Assembly (NCBI RefSeq): GCF_003334765.1
Contig: NZ_QOWT01000011.1
DNA length: 64,000 bases
Source: Escherichia coli
GTDB lineage: Bacteria > Pseudomonadota > Gammaproteobacteria > Enterobacterales > Enterobacteriaceae
Direction: 5' to 3' (one strand)
Shown here: in pieces, positions 39,623 through 40,119 of the stretch
How positions within the stretch are numbered: position 1 is the stretch's first letter
Layout of the letters: every line of letters begins with the position of its first letter
Position numbers and translations under genes: made by a program
Notes under the pieces: generated by a model
Told to the model about the DNA's origin: nothing
Seen by the model: only the letters and a program-made list of their open reading frames with translations
The model's database searches: none

Positions 39623-40119
39623 TTCGAGTAGAAATTCCCATTGATGCGCCGGGTATTGATGCCCTGCTGCGTCGCTCATTCGAAAGTGATGCGGAAGCGA
39701 AGCTGGTTCACGATCTGCGTGAAGATGGCTTTCTGACGCTGGGGCTGGTGGCGACAGATGACGAAGGTCAGGTCATTGGCTATGTGGCATTTAGTCCGGT
39801 TGATGTGCAGGGCGAAGACCTGCAATGGGTCGGCATGGCACCGTTGGCGGTTGATGAAAAATACCGTGGACAGGGGCTGGCACGCCAACTGGTCTATGAA
39901 GGACTCGATTCGCTTAATGAGTTCGGCTATGCCGCAGTGGTGACGCTGGGCGATCCGGCGCTGTACAGTCGTTTCGGCTTTGAACTGGCGGCGCATCACG
40001 ATCTGCGTTGCCGCTGGCCGGGCACTGAAAGCGCCTTCCAGGTACATCGTTTAGCGGATGACGCGCTGAATGGCGTTACCGGCCTGGTTGAGTATCACGA
40101 GCATTTCAATCGCTTTTAA
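39616..40119 (+). CDS. yhbS: GNAT-family N-acetyltransferase YhbS
   Basis: ORF track 167 aa; overlaps ubiT by 7 nt. Confidence 0.9.

Follow-up and report, generated by a model that had tools for sequence, protein, structure and literature searches.

The convergent genes yhbS and yhbQ of Escherichia coli share the last 14 bp of their coding sequences. We read this junction, with a probability of about 0.65 for the reading as a whole, as the product of an ancient and passive compaction in which the YhbS protein dictates the length of the overlap and a 3′-end element of the ubiT-yhbS mRNA is embedded in the tail of yhbQ. The junction lies in a stretch of 64,000 nucleotides (nt) of contig NZ_QOWT01000011.1 (the window), on whose numbering the following features are placed:

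39616..40119, + strand: yhbS (hqbA), GNAT family, 167 aa, second gene of the ubiT-yhbS operon, with its TAA stop at 40117-40119.
40408..40106, - strand: yhbQ, GIY-YIG nuclease family, 100 aa, with a TGA stop that is the reverse complement of tca at 40106-40108.
40106-40119, both strands: the shared coding segment TCAATCGCTTTTAA, 14 bp, seen in the sequence, in the list of open reading frames (ORFs) and in the RefSeq annotation.
40125-40160, both strands: a stable hairpin of 36 nt with arms at 40126-40136 and 40149-40159, within yhbQ codons 83-95.
40181-40189, + strand (yhbS-sense): the T-tract CTCTTTTTG, reverse complement of yhbQ codons Q74-K75-E76.
40118-40141, + read 40120-40141 and - read 40118-40139: a p19/RNase III 22-nt double-stranded RNA (dsRNA), mapping uniquely in the window.
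39098..39622, + strand: ubiT, first gene of the operon running into the junction.

A preliminary description of the window had already placed a 14-bp convergent overlap at 40106-40119, and all three sources named for the shared segment bear it out. The region 39000-41500 is 100% identical to the E. coli chromosome NZ_CP025903, and the RefSeq/PGAP annotation of this 100%-identical genome holds the same two coding sequences (CDSs) with the same overlap. On the yhbS side the segment comprises positions 2-3 of the F164 codon, N165, R166, F167 and the stop; on the yhbQ side it comprises part of the I97 codon, K98, S99, D100 and the stop. As read from the sequence, codon position 1 lies opposite position 1 and position 2 opposite position 3. 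An overlap between convergent genes depends on their stop codons alone, so a reassigned start cannot abolish it. Thousands of genomes have the same two stops, and alternative start or stop assignments, which the preliminary description had named as a means of removing the overlap, do not do so.

Both yhbS and yhbQ are genuine protein-coding genes. The crystal structure PDB 4RS2 covers YhbS residues 2-167, including the C-terminal HFNRF, and a C-terminal SPA fusion of YhbS has been detected (PMC10470549). For YhbQ there are 1,884 homologues with Pfam PF01541 (GIY-YIG), the Bacillus homologue in PDB 1ZG2 aligns to residues 5-93, and, judged by that alignment, a tail after the GIY-YIG domain is normal for the family. 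The yhbQ reading frame is kept across genera, and the indels in the YhbQ tail are multiples of three. An annotation artefact, i.e. a mis-called ORF or a sequencing error with no true overlap behind it, was rejected as next to impossible, given frames and stops that do not differ among thousands of genomes or between genera, a YhbS structure that includes the C-terminus, an expressed C-terminal tag and YhbQ indels that preserve the frame. Likewise rejected was a recent read-through extension of the yhbQ tail over a former intergenic terminator, as a tail of similar length is present in Bacillus 1ZG2 and tail and overlap occur together across the Enterobacterales.

Judging from its distribution among sequenced genomes, the overlap is ancient. 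The junction was found in 5,425 of 5,426 complete E. coli genomes, and its 14 shared bases are unchanged in seven divergent E. coli alleles and in E. albertii (8 Escherichia sequences). Across species, a scan of one genome per species by tblastn and a stop-extension script returned 80 loci, 58 of which contain both genes. The check in related genomes that the preliminary description had proposed thus comes out clearly: the genes overlap in 50 of these 58 Enterobacterales loci, and by exactly 14 bp in 30 (Escherichia, Citrobacter, Enterobacter, Kosakonia, Pluralibacter, Kluyvera, Shimwellia, Yersinia, Dickeya and Serratia), so that the 14-bp form spans Enterobacteriaceae, Yersiniaceae and Pectobacteriaceae. 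Independent gene calls give 14 bp for Salmonella, Yokenella, Kluyvera, Citrobacter amalonaticus and Intestinirhabdus as well. Other lengths are 4 bp (4 loci), 10 bp (2), 17 bp (6), 20 bp (1), 28-32 bp (4), 35 bp (2) and 43 bp (1). Four of the 58 loci have a gap of 19-135 bp instead (L014, L043, L050, L065), and four carry an extra 1.5-1.9 kb between yhbQ and yhbS (L053, L058 (Edwardsiella), L030 and L033). In the flanks of 22 of the 80 loci yhbS was not found; most of these come from beyond the Enterobacterales (Marinobacter, Gilliamella, Aeromonas, Mariprofundus), and two, Budvicia and one Serratia, belong to that order.

The YhbS protein accounts for the length. The yhbQ stop is the reverse complement of positions 2-3 of the Phe164 codon plus position 1 of the Asn165 codon, and TT[C/T]-A always gives T[G/A]A on the opposite strand. 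Over 35 loci the YhbS terminus reads F in 35, N in 32, R in 34 and F or L in 32, with per-site entropies of 0, 0.5, 0.19 and 1.24 bits for the last four residues, compared with 1.95, 1.14, 2.68 and 1.0 bits for the last four residues of YhbQ in the same analysis. YhbS is therefore the constrained partner, and the last four YhbQ residues are passengers that track synonymous changes in yhbS: an Arg change from CGC to CGT converts YhbQ Ser99 to Asn, and an Asn change from AAT to AAC converts Asp100 to Gly. An extension of YhbS by one or two codons, as in Pectobacterium, Pantoea and Acerihabitans, lengthens the overlap to 17 or 20 bp and leaves the site of the yhbQ stop unchanged. Since the near-invariant Phe-Asn of YhbS fixes the yhbQ stop, the constant length is explained without selection for the overlap itself, which has most likely been tolerated and not favoured for a regulatory role.

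Between the two genes there is no intergenic DNA, and to this extent the earlier statement that the junction leaves no room for a terminator is correct. It does not mean that a terminator must be lacking: a stable hairpin begins 6 nt beyond the yhbS stop within yhbQ codons, 17 nt upstream of the yhbQ stop, and orthologues carry canonical terminators there. The two 11-nt arms of the E. coli hairpin are 100% complementary in an inverted-repeat search and, with an inner stem of 3-4 bp, make 15 bp in all; the fold has z = -3.6 on the + strand and -3.05 on the - strand relative to dinucleotide shuffles. At -24.9 kcal/mol it ranks among the most stable structures of the window, where only 20 of 63,958 42-nt segments reach -24 kcal/mol or below and the other most stable hairpins are mostly recognisable terminators or repetitive extragenic palindromic (REP) elements. 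This stability is not a consequence of the encoded peptide. When the 15 codons were recoded synonymously 3,000 times, the yhbS-sense strand folded at -12.0±3.2 kcal/mol versus -24.6 kcal/mol for the native sequence (p = 0.0003); 0.03% of recodings match the native stability, none does under uniform codon choice, and control 15-codon segments of yhbQ are mostly unremarkable under the same treatment. A stable GC-rich stem-loop of the kind found in intrinsic terminators is thus present at 40125-40160. The E. coli T-tract at 40181-40189 has no adjoining pairing, as the hairpin lies about 21 nt upstream of it. In a search of Rfam 15 over 38800-41600, nothing was returned at the junction, and the sole match was a chance-level CRISPR-DR22 at 39030-39066 (E = 0.22).

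Comparison among relatives points in the same direction. When the E. coli structure was imposed on 20 Enterobacteriaceae junctions aligned without gaps, 71.7% of cells were paired, versus 64.9±1.2% in column shuffles (of which none out of 500 was as high) and 29-47% in slid registers, figures to be read with the caveat that the aligned sequences are related and that the structure was derived from one of them. Double changes occur at 8 of the 15 pairs, e.g. GGG/CCC to GCG/CGC in Salmonella, and in C. werkmanii a compensatory change from T-A to C-G alters two amino acids. Where the hairpin is polymorphic in E. coli, the variants affect loop, bulge or wobble positions; as they are mostly synonymous for yhbQ, they were not counted as independent structural evidence.

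Other genera appear to have solved the same problem with other sequences. Stop-proximal hairpins with different arms are found in Citrobacter, Shimwellia, Cedecea and some Enterobacter. In many Enterobacter, Kosakonia and Pluralibacter-like genomes, the E-R-L-V codons pair with the F-E-A-L codons to form a stem AGCGCCTCG/CGAGGCGCT of -15 to -24 kcal/mol that is followed directly by CTTTCTGG. A textbook terminator on the yhbS-sense strand is present in Yersinia, Pectobacterium, Dickeya, Brenneria, Serratia, Photorhabdus and Edwardsiella, one example from these seven genera being GAAGGCTGGT-N5-ACCAGCCTT-TCTTTTTG. The T-tract of these orthologue terminators is the reverse complement of the conserved Q-K-E codons, and the arms encode residues that differ by genus (QDQP, SHPPP, ICQP). 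For Arg these terminators use AGG, a rare codon in the genomes concerned. Many Enterobacter-like genomes, too, have a GC-rich hairpin directly against the T-tract, but E. coli does not. When yhbQ tails were recoded at 30 convergent Enterobacterales loci, the native sequence exceeded its recodings in structure at 26 loci, with z reaching -3.3, and lay near zero at two others; among outgroup loci without an adjacent yhbS, four of five were not more structured than their recodings. In Edwardsiella, despite the insert between the genes, a perfect hairpin followed by TCTTTTTG lies antisense to the yhbQ QKERLV codons (-24 kcal/mol).

RNA is made from both strands across the junction, and the two RNAs pair in vivo. 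Because each stop lies inside the partner gene, an mRNA that includes its own stop has at least 14 nt of complementarity to the other; the earlier statement that full-length mRNAs must be antisense to each other at their 3′ ends is thus upheld, and it agrees with published excludon and dsRNA tables. The pair yhbQ-yhbS is among the 165 convergent excludons of MG1655 (ExcludonFinder, NAR 2025, PMC12288877 Table 1), for which overlapping transcription is required in at least 50% of 58 MG1655 RNA-seq sets (PMC12288877). In addition, p19-captured RNase III dsRNA labelled 'yhbQ yhbS' has been tabulated (Huang et al., mBio 2020, PMC7373196 Table S3) in a list of perfectly paired 21-22-mers with 2-nt overhangs and both strands at no fewer than 1 read per million (RPM) (PMC7373196). 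Its two 22-mers, CAGUCUGCAAACCCCGGAGAUU (584 reads) and UCUCCGGGGUUUGCAGACUGCU (274 reads) (PMC7373196), map to 40118-40141, which means that yhbS-sense RNA extends at least 22 nt past the stop, into the 5′ arm of the hairpin, and is paired with yhbQ mRNA in vivo. The duplex is scarce, at 3-7 RPM among thousands, and 3′ overlaps are far poorer in dsRNA than 5′ overlaps (PMC7373196). On these published data, the transcripts overlap in vivo in the manner of a convergent excludon (PMC12288877, PMC7373196).

Taken together, the junction may have arisen as follows. All intergenic DNA between the ubiT-yhbS operon and yhbQ would have been lost in an ancestor of the Enterobacterales, leaving the genes in a tail-to-tail overlap. 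With no intergenic space left, the 3′-end signal of the ubiT-yhbS mRNA would have been written into the last ~25 codons of yhbQ. In E. coli this signal would be the 36-nt hairpin at 40125-40160, without a U-tract. Such a hairpin could itself terminate transcription, weakly or non-canonically, or it could halt 3′ exonucleases on an RNA whose synthesis had been ended further downstream by Rho or by collision. In other genera the signal would be a canonical hairpin and U-tract on the QKERLV codons. That the E. coli hairpin is a 3′-end element of ubiT-yhbS is probable. For yhbQ, no terminator could be recognised inside yhbS, and its transcripts probably continue antisense into yhbS until they are halted by Rho or by oncoming RNA polymerases.

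Several observations weigh against this account. The E. coli stem is not followed by a U-tract on either strand (TGCGCCTTCC on +, CGGAGATTAA on -), and the junction yields no canonical terminator in a consensus scan for terminators and promoters. In Adams et al. 2021, neither a Term-seq 3′ end nor a Rho region is listed for it (MG1655 3,299,8xx-3,300,3xx), and no 3′-end map for yhbS or yhbQ was found in published data, the TERMITe supplements being without a match. The hairpin starts so close to the yhbS stop, at 6 nt, that its 5′ arm would be covered by a ribosome terminating there. The hairpin codons encode a semi-conserved F-E/A-x-L-L-x-S-L-Q peptide, so protein constraint explains part of the conservation. 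RNAalifold returned no consensus structure across the 20 aligned Enterobacteriaceae junctions; as the hairpin is lineage-specific, pair counts for a named structure and synonymous recoding were used in its place. Excess structure is absent in Yokenella, Intestinirhabdus, Enterobacter ENT03 and Cedecea neteri, and the orthologues are phylogenetically related, meaning that counts across species are not independent.

Some of these points would also fit a purely neutral compaction, in which the overlap is a frozen accident and the hairpin incidental. Such a history is suggested by an overlap length that follows mechanically from the conserved Phe-Asn of YhbS, by the loss or resizing of the overlap in several lineages (gaps of 19-135 bp; overlaps of 4, 10 and 28-43 bp), by hairpin arms that encode the semi-conserved FEALL..SLQ peptide and by the lack of both a U-tract and an Enterobacteriaceae-wide consensus fold. 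We nevertheless consider it unlikely, because synonymous recodings almost never reach the native stability (p = 0.0003), most convergent orthologues show an effect in the same direction that outgroups without an adjacent yhbS do not, and lineages differ in the pairing of their arms, some with nonsynonymous compensatory changes and others with AGG beside the T-tract. A mechanical explanation of another kind would be an overlapping bidirectional terminator of the Ju/Wang type, in which a stem-loop without U-tracts pauses polymerase in both directions and head-on collision, aided by trailing polymerases, releases both transcripts. The hairpin does fold equally well on both strands, lacks U-tracts and sits where two convergent units meet, and both the model and its requirement for a hairpin have been described (bioRxiv 10.1101/2022.10.23.513370). 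Yet the hairpin lies upstream of the yhbQ stop, so that yhbQ mRNAs ending there would be non-stop unless at least 19 nt longer, the described examples are intergenic, and the model needs polymerase traffic at two genes that both appear weakly expressed; we therefore regard it as a rather remote alternative.

The other line of explanation gives the overlap a regulatory purpose, with overlapping 3′ ends selected for mutual repression of ubiT-yhbS and yhbQ through RNase III, polymerase collision or both. ubiT and yhbS form a single, Fnr-regulated transcription unit (PMC10470549), yhbS encodes the Hfq regulator HqbA (PMC10710024), and the repression would be between this Fnr-activated anaerobic operon and yhbQ, annotated as a DNA-damage nuclease. 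The place of the pair among the convergent excludons, with overlap in at least 50% of 58 transcriptomes (PMC12288877), and the capture of an RNase III-type 22-nt duplex at the site (PMC7373196) are in keeping with this proposal, as are the retention of the overlap across five Enterobacterales families and a variable yhbQ tail that has gained no earlier stop in most lineages even though truncation looks cheap. However, neither anticorrelated expression nor a phenotype has been reported, and the one screen bearing on the matter saw little effect of deleting yhbQ or yhbP on a yhbS plasmid (bioRxiv 10.1101/2021.05.11.443692). The duplex reaches only 3-7 RPM in a class of overlaps that is dsRNA-poor compared with 5′ overlaps (PMC7373196), and the exact conservation of 14 bp is accounted for by the constraint on YhbS. 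Mutual repression is accordingly improbable in our view, somewhat more so than a neutral origin. A more specific and still less probable form would be a conserved coupling device, in which Fnr-induced read-through from ubiT-yhbS (hqbA) over the last ~25 yhbQ codons forms an RNase III-cleavable duplex that tunes YhbQ, and vice versa, with selection for this coupling, in addition to the constraint on YhbS, explaining the persistence of the overlap in five families. We retain the reading of a passive compaction with an embedded 3′-end element.

Compared with known classes, the overlap is real, ordinary and already annotated, and its transcript overlap and dsRNA are already tabulated. Earlier surveys counted 58 convergent overlaps in E. 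coli (Lillo & Krakauer 2007, PMC2174442) or 75 (Huvet & Stumpf 2014, PMC4161906), and 23 of the 116 genes in the former 58 pairs have a rho-independent terminator inside the coding sequence of the partner (PMC2174442). Like these pairs (PMC2174442, PMC4161906), yhbS and yhbQ are two genuine ORFs on opposite strands, each with its stop inside the other, that share a short 3′ stretch and have a terminator-like element in the partner, as is the case for ~20% of such genes. Unlike them, they overlap by 14 bp rather than by the modal 4 bp (TTAA/CTAG type), a length kept across three families because the yhbQ stop is built into the conserved Phe-Asn of YhbS. The junction resembles convergent excludons (PMC12288877) in that the 3′ transcription of the neighbours overlaps, the pair is named in the MG1655 excludome and RNase III-type dsRNA has been recovered (PMC7373196); classical excludons, however, combine a long untranslated region (UTR) overlap with mutually exclusive expression, whereas here the coding sequences overlap and no reciprocal regulation is known. 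With intrinsic terminators embedded in coding sequence it has in common a GC-rich stem-loop just past the stop codon and, in orthologues from Yersinia, Serratia, Dickeya, Photorhabdus, Edwardsiella and Enterobacter-type genomes, a TCTTT(T/C)TG on the yhbS-sense strand after the stem. In E. coli, by contrast, the hairpin lies ~21 nt upstream of the T-tract and is followed by CUGCGCCUUCC, and a canonical U-tract is missing. Collision-type bidirectional terminators (Ju et al. 2019; bioRxiv 10.1101/2022.10.23.513370) likewise feature a symmetric hairpin without a U-tract where convergent units meet, but they are intergenic, whereas the yhbS/yhbQ hairpin is inside the yhbQ ORF upstream of its stop.

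The junction is also unusually polymorphic within the species. Over its 161 bp (40040-40200), 1,559 E. coli genomes (29%) are only 90-95% identical, unlike the surrounding 2.5 kb, which is at least 95% identical in every E. coli genome; the differences are concentrated in the inner hairpin and the yhbQ tail, and the 14 shared bases are constant. In NZ_LR890508.1 (strain MSB1_9I), the match breaks at ~40165, just past the hairpin, and the YhbQ variant is 110 aa long with an unrelated C-terminus (P0031), probably owing to an insertion or rearrangement in the yhbQ tail beside the hairpin. A second strong hairpin is found in the yhbQ-sense RNA at 40217-40258 (- strand, codons ~51-64; -22.4 kcal/mol), which is more stable than its synonymous recodings (p = 0.025 with usage-weighted and 0.007 with uniform codon choice).

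The RefSeq neighbourhood runs ubiU/ubiV (-), ubiT-yhbS (+), yhbQ (-), yhbP (+) and yhbO (-). Within the operon, ubiT and yhbS have a co-directional overlap of 7 bp (ATGCTAA, 39616-39622, combining the yhbS start ATG with the ubiT stop TAA) that is also called in five other genera and is compatible with translational coupling inside the Fnr-regulated operon. The window contains nine convergent pairs, two of which overlap (yhbS/yhbQ and yhbP/yhbO) and form one small cluster. In the second pair, yhbP (+, 40459..40902) and yhbO (-, 41400..40882) share 21 bp at 40882-40902, 470 bp away, and the overlap is likewise 21 bp in Salmonella, Kluyvera, C. amalonaticus and Intestinirhabdus and 15 bp in Yokenella. 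The pair yhbO-yhbP is in the convergent excludon list as well (PMC12288877), and a Rho termination region antisense within yhbO (MG1655 3299102, - strand) is consistent with read-through from yhbP (Adams et al. 2021). The convergent genes argG and yhbX, 7 bp apart at ~20386-20394, also appear in the published excludon list (PMC12288877).

E. coli has several dozen convergent CDS overlaps, and this one is of little importance alone; an embedded hairpin with codon-level evidence of selection next to a stop fixed by YhbS adds tidy details rather than a surprise. The overlap has a practical consequence: anyone who deletes, tags or recodes the 3′ end of either yhbS (hqbA, an Hfq regulator under study) or yhbQ will also change the C-terminus or the 3′-end element of the partner. 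Beyond this, the locus offers a worked example of how a conserved C-terminal motif of one protein, here Phe-Asn, can dictate the stop codon on the other strand, and of how the coding sequence of a convergent neighbour can accommodate a 3′-end hairpin or terminator, with solutions that differ from genus to genus.

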